Source: Escherichia coli (GTDB taxonomy: Bacteria; Pseudomonadota; Gammaproteobacteria; Enterobacterales; Enterobacteriaceae). From it: 64,000 nucleotides of DNA. The stretch lies in assembly GCF_024502345.1 (NCBI RefSeq), contig NZ_JALDNN010000001.1, one strand, 5' to 3'. Shown here piece by piece: positions 26,440-37,197 of this stretch. The notes beneath the pieces were generated by a model. That model saw only the letters and a program-made list of their open reading frames with translations. It was not told the DNA's origin and ran no database searches. Every line of letters starts with the position of its first letter. Position 1 is the stretch's first letter. The position numbers and the translations under genes are program-made.

Positions 26440-28698
26440 ATGAGCGATATGGCAGAGCGCCTTGCGCTACATGAATTTACGGAAAACGCCTACTTAAACT
26501 ACTCCATGTACGTGATCATGGACCGTGCGTTGCCGTTTATTGGCGATGGTCTTAAACCTGTTCAGCGCCGCATTGTGTATGCGATGTCTGAACTGGGCCT
26601 GAATGCCAGCGCCAAATTTAAAAAATCGGCCCGTACCGTCGGTGACGTACTGGGTAAATACCATCCGCACGGCGATAGCGCCTGTTATGAAGCGATGGTC
26701 CTGATGGCGCAGCCGTTCTCTTACCGTTATCCGCTGGTTGATGGTCAGGGGAACTGGGGCGCGCCGGACGATCCGAAATCGTTCGCGGCAATGCGTTACA
26801 CCGAATCCCGGTTGTCGAAATATTCCGAGCTGCTATTGAGCGAGCTGGGGCAGGGGACGGCTGACTGGGTGCCAAACTTCGACGGCACTTTGCAGGAGCC
26901 GAAAATGCTACCCGCCCGTCTGCCAAACATTTTGCTTAACGGCACCACCGGTATTGCCGTCGGCATGGCGACCGATATTCCACCGCATAACCTGCGTGAA
27001 GTGGCTCAGGCGGCAATCGCATTAATCGACCAGCCGAAAACCACGCTCGATCAGCTGCTGGATATCGTGCAGGGGCCGGATTATCCGACTGAAGCGGAAA
27101 TTATCACTTCGCGCGCCGAGATCCGTAAAATCTACGAGAACGGACGTGGTTCAGTGCGTATGCGCGCGGTGTGGAAGAAAGAAGATGGCGCGGTGGTTAT
27201 CAGCGCATTGCCGCATCAGGTTTCAGGTGCGCGCGTACTGGAGCAAATTGCTGCGCAAATGCGCAACAAAAAGCTGCCGATGGTTGACGATCTGCGCGAT
27301 GAATCTGACCACGAGAACCCGACCCGTCTGGTGATTGTGCCGCGTTCCAACCGCGTGGATATGGATCAGGTGATGAACCACCTCTTCGCTACCACCGATC
27401 TGGAAAAGAGCTATCGCATTAACCTCAATATGATCGGTCTGGATGGTCGTCCGGCGGTGAAAAACCTGCTGGAAATCCTCTCCGAATGGCTGGTGTTCCG
27501 TCGCGATACCGTGCGCCGCCGACTGAACTATCGTCTGGAGAAAGTCCTCAAGCGCCTGCATATCCTGGAAGGTTTGCTGGTGGCGTTTCTCAACATCGAC
27601 GAAGTGATTGAGATCATTCGTAACGAAGATGAACCGAAACCGGCGCTGATGTCGCGGTTTGGCCTTACGGAAACCCAGGCGGAAGCGATCCTCGAACTGA
27701 AACTGCGTCATCTTGCCAAACTGGAAGATATGAAGATTCGCGGTGAGCAGAGTGAGCTGGAAAAAGAGCGCGACCAGTTGCAGGGCATTTTGGCTTCCGA
27801 GCGTAAAATGAATAACCTGCTGAAGAAAGAACTGCAGGCAGACGCGCAAGCCTACGGTGACGATCGTCGTTCGCCGTTGCAGGAACGCGAAGAAGCGAAA
27901 GCGATGAGCGAGCACGACATGCTGCCGTCTGAACCTGTCACCATTGTGCTGTCGCAGATGGGCTGGGTACGCAGCGCTAAAGGCCATGATATCGACGCGC
28001 CGGGCCTGAATTATAAAGCGGGTGATAGCTTCAAAGCGGCGGTGAAAGGTAAGAGCAACCAACCGGTAGTGTTTGTTGATTCCACCGGTCGTAGCTATGC
28101 CATCGACCCGATTACGCTGCCGTCGGCGCGTGGTCAGGGCGAACCACTCACCGGCAAATTAACGTTGCCGCCTGGGGCGACCGTTGACCATATGCTGATG
28201 GAAAGCGACGATCAGAAACTGCTGATGGCTTCCGATGCGGGTTACGGTTTCGTCTGCACCTTTAACGATCTGGTGGCGCGTAACCGTGCAGGTAAGGCTT
28301 TGATCACCTTACCGGAAAATGCCCATGTTATGCCGCCGGTGGTGATTGAAGATGCTTCCGATATGCTGCTGGCAATCACTCAGGCAGGCCGTATGTTGAT
28401 GTTCCCGGTAAGTGATCTGCCGCAGCTGTCGAAGGGCAAAGGCAACAAGATTATCAACATTCCATCGGCAGAAGCCGCGCGTGGAGAAGATGGTCTGGCG
28501 CAATTGTACGTTCTGCCGCCGCAAAGCACGCTGACCATTCATGTTGGGAAACGCAAAATTAAACTGCGCCCGGAAGAGTTACAGAAAGTCACTGGCGAAC
28601 GTGGACGCCGCGGTACGTTGATGCGCGGTTTGCAGCGTATCGATCGTGTTGAGATCGACTCTCCTCGCCGTGCCAGCAGCGGTGATAGCGAAGAGTAA
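26440..28698 (+). CDS. parC: DNA topoisomerase IV subunit A, 752 aa
   Basis: 752-aa ORF; catalytic-Tyr region and GyrA-like sequence; recognised. Confidence 0.95.
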
Positions 28699-29742: not shown

Positions 29743-31155
29743 ATGTCACTCAGTCGGCGTCAGTTCATTCAGGCATCGGGGATTGCACTTTGTGCAGGCG
29801 CTGTTCCCCTGAAGGCCAGCGCAGCCGGGCAACAGCAACCGCTACCCGTTCCGCCGCTACTTGAATCTCGCCGTGGGCAACCGCTGTTTATGACTGTACA
29901 ACGTGCGCACTGGTCATTTACGCCAGGGACACGCGCGTCGGTCTGGGGAATCAATGGTCGTTACCTGGGGCCGACTATCCGCGTCTGGAAGGGCGACGAT
30001 GTTAAGCTTATTTACAGCAACCGCCTGACAGAAAATGTCTCAATGACGGTGGCCGGGCTACAGGTACCAGGCCCGCTGATGGGCGGTCCGGCACGGATGA
30101 TGTCGCCAAACGCTGACTGGGCACCCGTACTGCCTATTCGCCAGAACGCAGCTACTCTGTGGTATCACGCCAATACTCCCAACCGCACGGCTCAGCAGGT
30201 CTATAACGGCCTTGCCGGAATGTGGCTGGTGGAAGATGAAGTCAGCAAGTCGCTGCCTATCCCCAACCATTATGGTGTGGATGATTTTCCGGTCATTATC
30301 CAGGATAAACGGCTGGATAACTTTGGTACGCCAGAATACAACGAACCGGGAAGCGGCGGCTTTGTTGGTGATACGCTGCTGGTTAACGGTGTACAAAGCC
30401 CGTACGTTGAAGTCTCGCGTGGCTGGGTGCGCTTGCGACTGCTGAACGCGTCGAACTCTCGTCGCTATCAACTACAGATGAGCGATGGTCGCCCGTTACA
30501 TGTGATTTCTGGCGATCAGGGATTCCTGCCTGCTCCTGTATCGGTGAAGCAACTTTCGCTGGCACCGGGCGAGCGCCGCGAGATTCTGGTGGATATGAGC
30601 AACGGCGATGAAGTGTCGATCACCTGTGGCGAAGCGGCGAGCATTGTTGATCGTATTCGCGGCTTCTTTGAGCCATCCAGTATTCTGGTTTCTACCCTGG
30701 TGCTAACGCTGCGCCCAACCGGCCTTCTGCCGCTGGTCACAGACAGTCTTCCGATGCGCTTGCTGCCAACTGAAATCATGGCTGGTTCGCCAATTCGCAG
30801 TCGCGATATCAGTCTGGGTGATGACCCGGGTATTAATGGACAGCTGTGGGACGTCAACCGTATTGATGTCACCGCTCAGCAAGGAACGTGGGAACGCTGG
30901 ACGGTACGCGCGGACGAGCCGCAAGCGTTCCATATTGAAGGCGTAATGTTCCAGATCCGTAACGTGAATGGCGCGATGCCGTTCCCGGAAGACAGAGGCT
31001 GGAAAGATACCGTTTGGGTTGACGGACAAGTGGAGCTGCTTGTTTATTTCGGTCAGCCTTCCTGGGCGCACTTCCCGTTCTACTTCAACAGTCAGACGCT
31101 GGAAATGGCGGACCGTGGCTCGATTGGGCAACTGTTGGTCAATCCGGTACCGTAA
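29743..31155 (+). CDS. ftsP: Cell division protein FtsP (SufI), multicopper-oxidase fold, 470 aa
   Basis: Tat signal (SRRQFIQASG); recognised. Confidence 0.93.
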   Translation: MSLSRRQFIQASGIALCAGAVPLKASAAGQQQPLPVPPLLESRRGQPLFMTVQRAHWSFTPGTRASVWGINGRYLGPTIRVWKGDDVKLIYSNRLTENVSMTVAGLQVPGPLMGGPARMMSPNADWAPVLPIRQNAATLWYHANTPNRTAQQVYNGLAGMWLVEDEVSKSLPIPNHYGVDDFPVIIQDKRLDNFGTPEYNEPGSGGFVGDTLLVNGVQSPYVEVSRGWVRLRLLNASNSRRYQLQMSDGRPLHVISGDQGFLPAPVSVKQLSLAPGERREILVDMSNGDEVSITCGEAASIVDRIRGFFEPSSILVSTLVLTLRPTGLLPLVTDSLPMRLLPTEIMAGSPIRSRDISLGDDPGINGQLWDVNRIDVTAQQGTWERWTVRADEPQAFHIEGVMFQIRNVNGAMPFPEDRGWKDTVWVDGQVELLVYFGQPSWAHFPFYFNSQTLEMADRGSIGQLLVNPVP

Positions 31156-31205
31156 TGGACCAATTCATCGCCCCACAAAGTGGTGGGGCGATACAAGGAT
31201 GAATC

Positions 31206-32642
31206 ATGGATGGCATGGGATGGATGATTATTTTGGTACTTCCCTTTCTTTGGATGGGGTATGGACTGGCGTTGTTAATCATAATGGGGTGCGCTTTTGA
31301 ATCTAAGGGGATTCGTCGCGTTCTGCTATGGGGTGTTGCACCCCAGTTTATTATTCTTTGTATTACGACCTTATTGCTTTACTGGATTAACTCTCGGTTA
31401 ATTTATGTTTTTGTCTTTTTTCAGCCAGTTTTATGCATCACCACGGCAATTTTTTTGTTTGCTGGTAAAAAAACACAATATTCCAGATTGCTGTTTACTC
31501 TGTCTCATGTGATTTTTCTCGCTGGAGTTTTATATCAGGGGTATAGGGAAAATCTGCAATACATAATTAATAATGACTGGAAGGAATATAAAATAACGCG
31601 TTTATTTGAGCAAGTGCAGGACAATGGGGCGCATGCGCTGAAAAACGATGTAACTTGTTCAGAATTAATGCAACTACTTACACTGGCAGCGGAACGTGAT
31701 GACGTCAAAGAAGAGACGTTACGTACTCTTATTGCAAAGAGAGTATCGCCATTTCTGACAATGTCAGATAATTGTACGGGTGAGAATTCAGTAGAGATTT
31801 ATTCTGTATATACTACGCCTTTTATGGCGGCTATTCAAAATCATAATATACATTCTGTCCGTTTTTTTAGTCAATTGCTTATGGGAAACTCACCAAAAGC
31901 AAAAAATAATCGTGACATTGTGCGCCGGGCAAACCCTTTGATCGAAGTGTATAAATATAGTCATGGTTCAAAAAAACAACGTAAATCAGGGTTAGAAATA
32001 AGTAAGCAATTTATGGCTATTATGCCAGAACTATTAACAGATGCCGTCTGGCGTGCCGTGCTCAATGTATATGATGCCGATGCAGCACGATGGTTCTGGC
32101 GTAAGCAACCACCAGAAAATCGGTTGTATCGCTTAAAGGCTATGGCATTAATACCACAAACGGATGCGCTGTTGGCGGATATTCGACAAACTCCAGAGGT
32201 ACTGAATATCTCGTCTGAGAGTGATCCGAATGAAGAGGAGTTTCTCCATTTCTTAATTAATGGGGGCGATATCACTGTAATACATGCACTGGTTGAAAAA
32301 GGAATAGTTAACTGGCAGCACCTTATGAACATTGAGGGGTTTGATAAGGACCCCCTAATTTGGGCTATTTCAAAGCTGGGAGAAACTGACAATGACCGGG
32401 AGGTTTTGGCATTAATTATTCATGATATTAATGCGCAAAACGCACTGCCGGAGGATCGCATTGCCAAATATTTAACGCGGACGGGATCAATGGGCGATAT
32501 TTTTTTAAAAGCGGGCTTACATTGTGATAAGTTATATTCGGCAATTGAGTCCGACAAAAAGCGAAATAATGGTATGTATAGTCAAAACGCCAGGGAAGAA
32601 GTGGATCGCGTATGTACTCCGGTGATGCTGCCAACTTACTGA
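31206..32642 (+). CDS. Hypothetical membrane-anchored protein, paralog A (~474 aa natively): 4 predicted N-terminal TM helices + C-terminal domain with ankyrin-like repeat motifs; last codons supplied by IS1
   Basis: ATG with SD AAGGA 6 nt upstream; AT-rich; hydrophobic segments at ~5-29, 39-60, 65-87, 94-111; motifs such as TTPFMAAIQNHNIHSVRFFSQLL resemble ankyrin consensus; not recognised as any K-12 gene. Confidence 0.7.
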   Translation: MDGMGWMIILVLPFLWMGYGLALLIIMGCAFESKGIRRVLLWGVAPQFIILCITTLLLYWINSRLIYVFVFFQPVLCITTAIFLFAGKKTQYSRLLFTLSHVIFLAGVLYQGYRENLQYIINNDWKEYKITRLFEQVQDNGAHALKNDVTCSELMQLLTLAAERDDVKEETLRTLIAKRVSPFLTMSDNCTGENSVEIYSVYTTPFMAAIQNHNIHSVRFFSQLLMGNSPKAKNNRDIVRRANPLIEVYKYSHGSKKQRKSGLEISKQFMAIMPELLTDAVWRAVLNVYDADAARWFWRKQPPENRLYRLKAMALIPQTDALLADIRQTPEVLNISSESDPNEEEFLHFLINGGDITVIHALVEKGIVNWQHLMNIEGFDKDPLIWAISKLGETDNDREVLALIIHDINAQNALPEDRIAKYLTRTGSMGDIFLKAGLHCDKLYSAIESDKKRNNGMYSQNAREEVDRVCTPVMLPTY

Positions 32643-32675
32643 TTTAGTGTATGATGGTGTTTTTGAGGTGCTCCA

Positions 32676-32951
32676 GTGGCTTCTGTTTCTATCAGCTGTC
32701 CCTCCTGTTCAGCTACTGACGGGGTGGTGCGTAACGGCAAAAGCACCGCCGGACATCAGCGCTATCTCTGCTCTCACTGCCGTAAAACATGGCAACTGCA
32801 GTTCACTTACACCGCTTCTCAACCCGGTACGCACCAGAAAATCATTGATATGGCCATGAATGGCGTTGGATGCCGGGCAACCGCCCGCATTATGGGCGTT
32901 GGCCTCAACACGATTTTCCGCCATTTAAAAAACTCAGGCCGCAGTCGGTAA
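32676..32951 (+). CDS. insA: IS1 InsA, 91 aa
   Basis: Recognised sequence [43 protein letters not shown]... Confidence 0.95.
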
Positions 32952-33373
32952 CCTCGCGCATACAGCCGGGCAGTGACGTCATCGTCTGCGCGGAAATGGA
33001 CGAACAGTGGGGATACGTCGGGGCTAAATCGCGCCAGCGCTGGCTGTTTTACGCGTATGACAGGCTCCGGAAGACGGTTGTTGCGCACGTATTCGGTGAA
33101 CGCACTATGGCGACGCTGGGGCGTCTTATGAGCCTGCTGTCACCCTTTGACGTGGTGATATGGATGACGGATGGCTGGCCGCTGTATGAATCCCGCCTGA
33201 AGGGAAAGCTGCACGTAATCAGCAAGCGATATACGCAGCGAATTGAGCGGCATAACCTGAATCTGAGGCAGCACCTGGCACGGCTGGGACGGAAGTCGCT
33301 GTCGTTCTCAAAATCGGTGGAGCTGCATGACAAAGTCATCGGGCATTATCTGAACATAAAACACTATCAATAA
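32870..33373 (+). CDS. insB: IS1 InsB' frame (InsAB' transposase made by -1 frameshift from insA)
   Basis: Overlapping -1 frame ORF inside IS1; recognised. Confidence 0.9.
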
Positions 33374-33451
33374 GTTGGAGTCATTACCTGTACTCCCGCA
33401 AAATAGGTGCAGTTTGGCGCGGTTAAGGAATAAAAAATAAAGGACTAAGCC

Positions 33452-34862
33452 ATGCGTAACGATGAACTTCTTCACCATTTTACTTTTACATTGCTTATGT
33501 TGGGTGGCTATCTACTGACTCTGTTCATCGTTATCGTCCTTTCCTTTTTTCGCCCACTATGCCGAAAAATGGTCTTCCATGGCATATTGCCACAATTGAT
33601 GATGTCGCTAATGGTGTCGCTCGGTTTATATTATCTGGAACGATACTCTATTGCGGTATGGGCCTTACTGGATTCTGTTTGGATATTATTCCCTTGCCTG
33701 TTATTGATCATAGTGATAAATAAATGGTCAAAACGTTCCCTTGTATGGATGAGTGCTTGTCATATTATGTGCTTGCTGTTGTTACTCTGGCAGGTGCAGC
33801 CCACGTTATTTAAAATCAGCTTTTATCACCAACAATTAAGTCACCTGGCTCAGGCAGAACAGGAAAATTTCCGCACACTGGATGCGATTCACGATACGCA
33901 ACGTCTGGAAGAGATGTTGCTGGTAGCGTTGAAATCCCCGGAAAATAAAACCTCTGAAAATGCCTTTCGCTATCTGTCAGGGCGAATCTCACCATTTGCT
34001 ATACCTTCCATTGGCGATCAAAAGTATTCTACCCGCACTTTTTTTACGATTGCGTTGGAACATTACAACGCCCGCGCCATCCGCGCGTTTAGCCGCTTTC
34101 TGCAAGGAAATTCCTCAAAAGCGCAGGAATATCGCGCGATTGTTCATCAAAACAATCCACTGCAGCAGATGTACCGGGGAATAAGTTTGCCAATTCGTTT
34201 TAGTGAAGAAGAGATCGCCCGCCACATTGTTGCCGCTCGCGAGATAAGCCTCACCTTACTGCCCCTGATGCCAGAATTATTAAGCGAAGAGGCGTATGCA
34301 AATGTCATTGATGCTTATGACAGCGCAACGCTGAAGGCTTTTTGGCAGATCCAGCTGCCCGCCCACGCCGGTTTTACGCCTGGAAGCGATGTCGGTAATT
34401 CCTATGACAGCGGCACTCGTTCAACAGGTGAGGGAGTCACCAAAGCGGCTTGAACTGAAAGATAAAAGTGGCAGGACAGTACTAACTTACATCGTGCGCT
34501 TTGGAAATATTGCCGCAGTACAGGCACTGATTGACGCTAATCTGATCGACTGGCAACGGCTTCGCCAATCGACAGAAAGGTCAACACCATTATTACTGGC
34601 CACCTGGCGACAAAAATACGACGATGATCATGTAATCTTCCCATTGATTTTAAAGGACATTCTGGCAAAAAATACACCACCGTCGGCAGAGGAAATAATG
34701 AACTGCATCAAGGATGGTATGACCGCAGATGATTTTTTATCTGCCGGAATGAGCAACACGCAATTCTGTTCTGCGATTGAACAAAGCCTCCAGGCGAAAA
34801 CGTCAGTATTACCGGCGAATCGATTACGCCATCTGCAATCCTCGCTGTGTGCAAAGCTGTAA
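33452..34862 (+). pseudogene. Paralog B of the membrane-anchored ankyrin-like protein, split by a frameshift near 34350-34370 into ORFs 33452..34453 and 34389..34862
   Basis: Good RBS (AAGGA-7nt-ATG); N-terminal TM helices; aligns with paralog A across the frame switch (A: FWRKQPPENRLYRLKAMALIP; B frame1 FWQIQLP, frame2 PPTPVLRLEAMSVIP). Confidence 0.6.
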
Positions 34863-34977
34863 CCAACCGGGAGTTAAGTCATCCGCTGAAAACATCGCAT
34901 TAACTTTTCGATTTCTCTTTCGTTCCGGCTTATAATCCCCGGCCTTTGATTATTTTTTTATCATTTCTGGAAGCAAA

Positions 34978-37197
34978 ATGAGCTCTATCTCCCTGATCCA
35001 ACCGGATCGCGACCTGTTCTCCTGGCCGCAGTACTGGGCCGCCTGTTTTGGACCGGCACCGTTTTTGCCGATGTCTCGTGAAGAGATGGATCAACTTGGC
35101 TGGGATAGCTGCGACATCATTTTGGTTACTGGCGACGCGTATGTCGATCACCCAAGCTTCGGGATGGCGATTTGCGGTCGTATGCTGGAAGCGCAGGGCT
35201 TTCGCGTCGGGATCATCGCCCAGCCGGACTGGAGCAGCAAAGACGACTTTATGCGTCTGGGTAAACCGAATCTGTTTTTCGGTGTTACTGCTGGCAACAT
35301 GGATTCGATGATCAACCGTTATACCGCCGATCGCCGTTTACGTCATGACGATGCCTACACGCCGGATAACGTCGCGGGTAAGCGCCCGGATCGCGCCACA
35401 CTGGTTTATACCCAGCGTTGTAAAGAGGCGTGGAAAGATGTACCGGTGATCCTCGGCGGTATTGAGGCTAGTCTGCGCCGTACCGCACATTATGATTACT
35501 GGTCCGATACCGTGCGCCGTTCCGTGCTGGTGGATTCGAAAGCCGACATGCTGATGTTTGGTAACGGTGAGCGTCCGCTGGTGGAGGTGGCGCACCGTCT
35601 GGCGATGGGCGAGCCGATTAGTGAAATCCGCGATGTGCGTAATACCGCGATTATCGTGAAAGAGGCGCTGCCTGGCTGGAGCGGCGTGGATTCCACCCGT
35701 CTTGATACCCCTGGAAAAATCGACCCAATCCCGCATCCGTATGGTGAAGATTTGCCGTGCGCGGATAACAAACCGGTGGCACCGAAAAAGCAGGAAGCCA
35801 AAGCCGTAACCGTGCAGCCACCGCGCCCGAAACCGTGGGAAAAAACCTACGTGTTGCTGCCTTCTTTCGAGAAAGTGAAGGGCGATAAAGTGCTGTACGC
35901 CCATGCTTCGCGTATTCTGCACCACGAAACCAACCCAGGCTGTGCCCGCGCATTGATGCAAAAACACGGCGACCGCTATGTGTGGATCAACCCGCCTGCT
36001 ATTCCGCTTTCTACCGAAGAGATGGACAGCGTTTTTGCGCTGCCATACAAGCGCGTGCCACATCCGGCCTATGGCAATGCCCGTATTCCGGCTTACGAAA
36101 TGATCCGTTTTTCGGTCAACATTATGCGTGGCTGCTTTGGCGGCTGCTCTTTCTGTTCTATCACCGAGCACGAAGGGCGCATTATTCAGAGCCGTTCCGA
36201 AGATTCGATCATTAATGAGATCGAAGCGATCCGCGACACCGTTCCAGGTTTTACGGGCGTAATTTCCGATCTCGGTGGGCCAACTGCCAACATGTATATG
36301 TTGCGCTGCAAATCGCCACGCGCTGAACAAACTTGTCGCCGTTTGTCGTGCGTTTATCCGGATATTTGTCCGCACATGGACACTAACCACGAACCGACGA
36401 TCAACCTCTATCGCCGTGCGCGTGATCTGAAAGGCATTAAAAAAATCCTCATCGCCTCAGGCGTACGTTATGACATCGCCGTGGAAGATCCGCGCTATAT
36501 CAAAGAGTTGGCGACCCATCACGTCGGCGGTTATCTGAAGATTGCTCCGGAACATACCGAAGAAGGGCCGTTGTCGAAGATGATGAAGCCGGGCATGGGC
36601 AGCTATGACCGCTTTAAAGAGCTATTCGATACCTACTCGAAACAGGCAGGTAAAGAGCAGTATCTGATCCCGTATTTCATCTCTGCGCACCCCGGTACGC
36701 GTGATGAAGATATGGTGAATTTGGCGCTGTGGCTGAAAAAGCATCGTTTCCGTCTCGACCAGGTACAGAACTTCTACCCATCGCCGCTGGCGAACTCAAC
36801 CACCATGTATTACACCGGGAAAAACCCGCTGGCGAAGATTGGTTATAAGAGCGAAGACGTCTTCGTACCGAAGGGCGACAAGCAGCGTCGTTTGCATAAA
36901 GCGTTGTTGCGTTACCACGATCCGGCAAACTGGCCGTTAATCCGCCAGGCGCTGGAAGCGATGGGTAAAAAGCATCTGATTGGTAGCCGTCGCGATTGCT
37001 TAGTGCCTGCGCCAACCATTGAAGAGATGCGTGAAGCTCGTCGCCAGAACCGCAATACCCGTCCGGCGTTGACGAAACATACGCCGATGGCGACCCAGCG
37101 TCAGACGCCTGCTACGGCAAAAAAAGCGTCGTCTACGCAATCTCGTCCGGTGAATGCTGGTGCGAAGAAACGCCCTAAAGCGGCGGTTGGACGTTAA
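34978..37197 (+). CDS. ygiQ: Radical SAM protein YgiQ (UPF0313), 739 aa
   Basis: CxxxCxxC motif (CFGGCSFC); basic low-complexity C-terminal tail; recognised. Confidence 0.9.

Follow-up and report, generated by a model that had tools for sequence, protein, structure and literature searches.

Between ftsP and ygiQ in this stretch of Escherichia coli DNA, an IS1 element is found at the very end of one of two paralogous genes, referred to here as A and B. The question that this locus raises is whether the arrangement is the product of a simple transposition, and what consequences the insertion could have for A, for B and for the element itself. The window, i.e. the whole stretch of DNA that was analysed, is 64,000 nucleotides in length, and the element and the two genes lie in it as follows.

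31206-32642, + strand: gene A in its chimeric form, 478 aa, defined by the list of open reading frames, its translation and comparison with IS1-free alleles of 474 aa
32621-33388, + strand: complete IS1 (IS1B/IS1C type), 768 bp, with its transposase genes in the same orientation as A and B
33452-34862, + strand: gene B, paralog of A and a pseudogene, present as open reading frames 33452-34453 (333 aa) and 34389-34862 (157 aa)

The order of genes in this region is parC (26440-28698), plsC, ftsP (29743-31155), A, IS1, B (in two pieces) and ygiQ (34978-37197). Since ftsP and ygiQ are adjacent in K-12, where they are 110 nt apart, A and B together form an islet of ~3 kb. This islet (31156-34905) replaces the hairpin that follows ftsP in K-12; the K-12 sequence resumes ~75 nt upstream of ygiQ, and the sequence upstream of ygiQ is the same as in K-12. 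The GC contents of A and B are 40% and 46%, compared with 56% for ftsP and 55% for ygiQ, and the islet is present in 13 of the 5426 complete RefSeq genomes of E. coli. The islet is horizontally acquired and is carried by a minority of E. coli lineages.

That A and B are true paralogs came from their alignment, which gives 27% identity over 463 residues (E 2e-47), and both proteins have hydrophobic N-terminal segments. Family searches of A and B in Pfam, NCBIfam and PADLOC returned nothing significant. The matches to Pfam Ank_2 are weak, with an i-E of 0.24 for A and 0.0027 for B, and some fragments of B are labelled 'ankyrin repeat domain-containing protein' in RefSeq. An Rfam scan of positions 30000-36000 found no RNA family. 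At the left edge of the islet, between the stop codon of ftsP and the start codon of A, there is a GC-rich hairpin, CATCGCCCCAC-AAAG-TGGTGGGGCGAT (31160-31200), which differs from the hairpin found at this place in K-12. This hairpin may restrict how much transcription runs on from ftsP into A.

The original prediction described the element as a complete IS1 of 768 bp, and this is borne out by alignments to reference elements, in which no indels are found and the inverted repeats, insA, the A6C motif and insB are all intact. Compared with IS1C of K-12, the window IS1 has 2 substitutions and no indels. The comparison with IS1A of K-12, for which an alignment had been proposed as a check, gives 7 substitutions, no indels and an overall identity of 99.09%, and the ends match, the terminal 25 nt being identical. 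Many chromosomal and plasmid copies, described in RefSeq as 'IS1-like element IS1B family transposase', are 100% identical to the element over all 768 bp. Its parts are the following.

32621-32643, + strand: left terminal inverted repeat (IRL), GGTGATGCTGCCAACTTACTGAT, 23 nt, imperfect, from the repeat finder (I1)
32628-32655, + strand: promoter-like site CTGCCA-16-TATGAT, within or adjoining IRL, from a consensus scan only
32676-32951, + strand: insA, 91 aa, GTG start, 1 aa difference from K-12 InsA
32870-33373, + strand: insB frame, 167 aa as a free-standing open reading frame, 5 aa differences from K-12 InsB1
32927-32933, + strand: slip motif AAAAAAC (A6C) at IS1 position 307, for the -1 programmed frameshift that gives InsAB'
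33366-33388, + strand: right terminal inverted repeat (IRR), ATCAATAAGTTGGAGTCATTACC, 23 nt, imperfect, from the repeat finder (I1)

The arms of IRL and IRR, which start with GGTGATGCTGCC and GGTAATGACTCC, are 23 nt long and 78% complementary according to the repeat finder. InsA matches positions 1-81 of the NCBIfam transpos_IS1 profile with 90 bits, which is below the whole-protein cut-off of 100 as expected for a protein that covers only the N-terminal 40% of the profile's full-length product, and it also matches the IS1/IS1595 zinc-binding domain (41 bits, cut-off 28). InsB matches positions 76-199 of the transpos_IS1 profile with 143.8 bits, above the same cut-off of 100. The function of the A6C motif in InsAB' synthesis is established for IS1, and homologous copies are annotated with a 'programmed frameshift'. 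The promoter-like site at 32628-32655 is presumably in the position of IS1's own insA promoter. Judged from the sequence, the features required for transposition are all intact in the window IS1. With IS1B and IS1C of K-12 (IS1R-type) it shares the length of 768 bp, the terminal inverted repeats, insA and insB and the A6C motif, and it differs from them only by its insertion site. There is one IS1 copy within the 64-kb window, and IS1 is found in 4950 of the 5426 complete E. coli genomes, the median number of places per genome being 11. As an element, the window IS1 is wholly ordinary.

How the element came to its present place is recorded in the sequence next to its ends, where an 8-bp direct repeat had been predicted and was found again both on re-reading and with the repeat finder.

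32613-32620: left copy of the target-site duplication, TGTACTCC, 8 bp, from direct reading and the repeat finder (D10)
33389-33396: right copy of the target-site duplication, TGTACTCC, 8 bp, from direct reading and the repeat finder (D10)

Both copies lie directly against the ends of IS1. Target duplications of IS1 are 8 bp or 9 bp in length (PMC12428005). A duplication of 9 bp was considered for this site and rejected on both sides: the left copy is preceded by A and the right copy by the terminal C of IS1, while the right copy is followed by C and the left copy by the first G of IS1. We would like to stress that the repeat alone proves little, as several unrelated 8-mers are repeated by chance within the same 1.2 kb (D7-D13). 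The 8-mer is meaningful because of its position, the chance that TGTACTCC recurs at one fixed position being ~1.3e-5, and because empty sites contain it only once. In the IS1-free strain E. coli PT62, the sequence reads ...GATCGCGTATGTACTCCCGCAAAATAGG..., with TGTACTCC in a single copy at exactly that place.

To reconstruct the empty site, positions 32621-33396, corresponding to IS1 and one copy of the repeat, were deleted from the window, which leaves 6679 nt from ftsP to ygiQ. IS1-free contigs that are nearly identical to the window were retrieved by exact-protein look-ups. The reconstructed sequence aligns to five of them (L013-L017) without gaps and with 1-6 mismatches, the single mismatch being to L016. 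That both flanks are gapless and colinear shows a simple insertion without later rearrangement, as had been predicted, and the comparison with island-bearing strains that lack IS1, also proposed earlier, thus gives a single TGTACTCC between colinear flanks. We are almost certain that the locus arose when an ordinary IS1, intact in all its parts, transposed in a simple event into the last codons of gene A, within an AT-rich islet. On this reading, the last codons of A were cut by the transposase with a stagger of 8 bp, repair of the gaps duplicated TGTACTCC, and the site has stayed without rearrangement since. The insertion is ordinary, was correctly described and is present in public databases already.

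At least 14 contigs, drawn from NCBI assemblies, from ENA metagenomes and from Logan runs, carry the coding sequence of exactly this chimeric A. Short-read contigs that contain the left junction stop a few dozen bases into the left end of IS1, and those that contain the right junction (L019-L021) start inside IRR and run through TGTACTCC into B. Such breaks inside the ends of IS1 are expected for a multicopy repeat in short-read assemblies. Samples that gave the left-junction contigs L004 and L003 also gave two of the right-junction contigs, L019 and L020, and L003, L004, L019 and L021 agree in their flanks with 100% identity. On the other hand, IS1 is absent from this site in A in all 5426 complete RefSeq E. 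coli genomes searched, and therefore the allele is rare. The 8-bp duplication together with the near-isogenic empty sites marks one E. coli sublineage cleanly and in a way that can be dated.

Three other histories of the site have to be weighed against simple transposition. IS1 is so highly repeated in E. coli, with its median of 11 places, and so regularly breaks short-read contigs, that an assembler could have put a copy of it in the wrong place. We find such an artefact hardly credible, as both junctions are present in independent assemblies and metagenomes (L003-L010 for the left and L019-L021 for the right), and as a misplaced element would not produce two perfect copies of an 8-bp sequence that empty sites have only once. 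It is also common for IS1 to mediate rearrangements, and the element could then belong to a composite transposon as one of its ends, or be what a deletion, an inversion or a cointegrate left behind. Given that there is one IS1 in the 64-kb window, that matching duplications are found on both sides, and that both flanks are gapless and colinear with IS1-free genomes, the probability of this history is very small indeed.

Alternatively, IS1 could have been ancestral at the site in A and the IS1-free alleles could have arisen by precise excision, which would likewise leave TGTACTCC in a single copy. Precise excision of IS1 is rare. The alleles without IS1 are numerous and diverse, with identities of 96.7-99.99%, and occur in backgrounds with intact B as well as with frameshifted B, whereas the insertion is found on one haplotype only, and we consider an ancestral IS1 extremely improbable.

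The insertion point is after the second base of the codon for Pro-472 of A. Residues 1-472 of the chimeric protein are native, and the last six codons (VMLPTY) and the TGA stop (32640-32642) are read from IRL, so that the protein ends with ...EEVDRVCTPVMLPTY, i.e. ...CTPVMLPTY. In other words, A keeps 472 of its 474 residues and Ala-Lys-stop is replaced by Val-Met-Leu-Pro-Thr-Tyr-stop. The native end has been displaced to the other side of the element.

33397-33406, + strand: displaced native 3' end of A, C GCA AAA TAG (last base of the Pro codon, then Ala, Lys and stop), from comparison with PT62

Both statements of the original prediction about this end agree with our comparisons. The frame that is restored by removing IS1 and one repeat copy ends with ...EEVDRVCTPAK, which is identical to the end of A in E. 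coli PT62 and is seen likewise in natural alleles, and translation against IS1-free alleles shows that the present end is read from IRL. As a stop codon is met within 27 nt in any of the three frames in which IRL can be entered, insertions of this kind will as a rule add a short foreign tail. Among natural alleles, the tail of A is CTPAK, CTPTK or CNPAK, and it lies beyond the region that is aligned with paralog B. Because the tail differs from allele to allele and shows no conservation in B, the C-terminal change to A is probably neutral. The exact chimeric protein has been deposited for E. coli as a 'hypothetical protein' (WP_256632709.1 / MCQ7033392.1). Our results give this entry an explanation: WP_256632709.1 is a chimera of a 474-aa islet protein and a tail from the left end of IS1.

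The alleles of A (31206-32620 of the window and 1607-3021 of contigs L001 and L002) differ mostly non-synonymously. There are 17 nt differences and 12 aa changes compared with LD91-1, and 13 nt differences and 7 aa changes compared with PT62. This pattern suggests that selection on A may be relaxed or diversifying.

What could the insertion mean for gene B? Intact B is a protein of 469 aa, e.g. in PT62. In the window, the gene is frameshifted by an additional C in the C-run at 34358-34360. Contigs L013-L018, which lack IS1, have the same frameshifted B of 333 aa immediately after an intact A of 474 aa; their identity to the window flanks is 99.91-99.985% (L013-L017) and 99.5% (L018). In the cluster table, 101 contigs have the 333-aa B, compared with 7 that have the chimeric A. 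As the frameshift is common to the closest IS1-free relatives, B was broken before IS1 arrived. Read from these alleles, IS1 did not inactivate B, which is already a pseudogene at the time of insertion. Other truncated forms of B, of 268, 230, 224, 177 and 152 aa, are found in its 90% cluster. Within E. coli, B seems to have decayed repeatedly, and A has mostly stayed at 474 aa.

It had been predicted that the insertion separates A from B, that the two genes were probably co-transcribed, and that expression of B may now depend on read-through or on an outward promoter of IS1. The separation is confirmed, the distance between the genes having increased from 45 nt in the ancestral arrangement to 809 nt now. 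The former co-transcription can be called plausible only, because the genes were 45 nt apart and the ancestral gap between A and B has no predicted terminator-like site. How B is expressed now is largely moot, since the gene was frameshifted already. In addition, no consensus promoter is found at the junction: a consensus scan returned no sigma-70-like promoter spanning the right end of IS1 and the leader of B. The best outward candidate picked manually, with TTGGAG (33375-33380) and CAAAAT (33399-33404) separated by an 18-nt spacer, has 3/6 and 4/6 matches and was rejected as below the threshold of the tool. A scan for intrinsic terminators on the + strand from insB to B found none.

IS1 is polar in either orientation according to the classical literature, and for insertions of the gal and lac type a reduced transcription of downstream genes is expected whichever way the element points. 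Our literature search on IS1 polarity and hybrid promoters gave nothing directly usable. Like the classical polar insertions in gal and lac, the window has IS1 between two closely spaced and co-oriented genes, A and B, which were originally 45 nt apart. It differs from them in that the downstream gene was already a frameshifted pseudogene. IS1 is probably polar on any residual transcription of B, and since B is dead, such polarity would have no obvious phenotype.

Both intact and frameshifted B (34848-34862) end with Cys-Ala-Lys-Leu, which is CaaX-like, and the end of native A (32600-32620), Cys-Thr-Pro-Ala-Lys, is not of the CaaX type. Tetrapeptides of this type are prenylated by host cells on some bacterial effectors with ankyrin repeats. 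The CaaX-like end of B may well be due to chance.

The remaining question is whether the new neighbourhood could matter to IS1. The element is co-oriented with A, the stop codon of chimeric A lies 33 nt upstream of the start of insA, and no intrinsic terminator was found by scanning the + strand from the end of A to insA. Because the genes share one orientation and there is no predicted terminator between them, read-through is probable, and we infer that transcripts of A probably run into insA and insAB'. If this is true, the mRNA of gene A would continue into the transposase genes, which would be transcribed as part of it. How much transcription is available for this is another matter. No promoter was identified for A, and given this and the hairpin after ftsP, A may be poorly transcribed.

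That transcription from outside can act on IS1 has been studied in K-12, where transcription of an upstream host gene into IS1 raised both the transcription of insAB' and transposition, and a terminator upstream of IS1 lowered both (PMC12428005). IS1E inside yrhA of K-12 resembles the window IS1 in that it is co-oriented with the interrupted host gene and has no terminator in between (PMC12428005). The window differs in that the insertion is in the last codons of A, so that the host protein is nearly full length, and the read-through was measured in K-12 alone. The window IS1 represents a further natural example of IS1 in tandem behind a host gene. External transcription into IS1 was reportedly found by Biel, Adelt and Berg in 1984 to lower transposition, which is the opposite of the 2025 result described above for K-12.

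These considerations bear on whether the insertion could itself have been selected, be it for the altered C-terminus of A, for the uncoupling of A from the decaying B, or for bringing IS1 under read-through from A and thereby making it an unusually active donor in its lineage. The allele persists across several independent samples, it has the tandem orientation without a terminator-like site from the end of A to insA, and IS1 transposition in K-12 is increased by upstream tandem transcription (PMC12428005). However, recurrence across samples is equally well explained by clonal descent, the flanks being 100% identical across L003, L004, L019 and L021; the tail of A is variable and lies outside the alignment with B; and B was dead already. 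Selection for the insertion thus appears unlikely to us. We also doubt that the position and orientation of IS1 are non-neutral in the sense that a context-activated donor drives IS1 expansion in its E. coli lineage and is coupled to a signal that induces the islet. For an ordinary transposition into the end of A, the significance beyond annotation would be little and the likely effect negligible.

A different island occupies the same site downstream of ftsP in E. coli SCU-387 (contig L023, 6057-13369). It encodes a TRAP transporter and dehydrogenases and is also broken by an element of the IS1B type, which has truncated two permeases, one SLC13 and one TRAP. The junction of ftsP and ygiQ looks like a variable integration spot.
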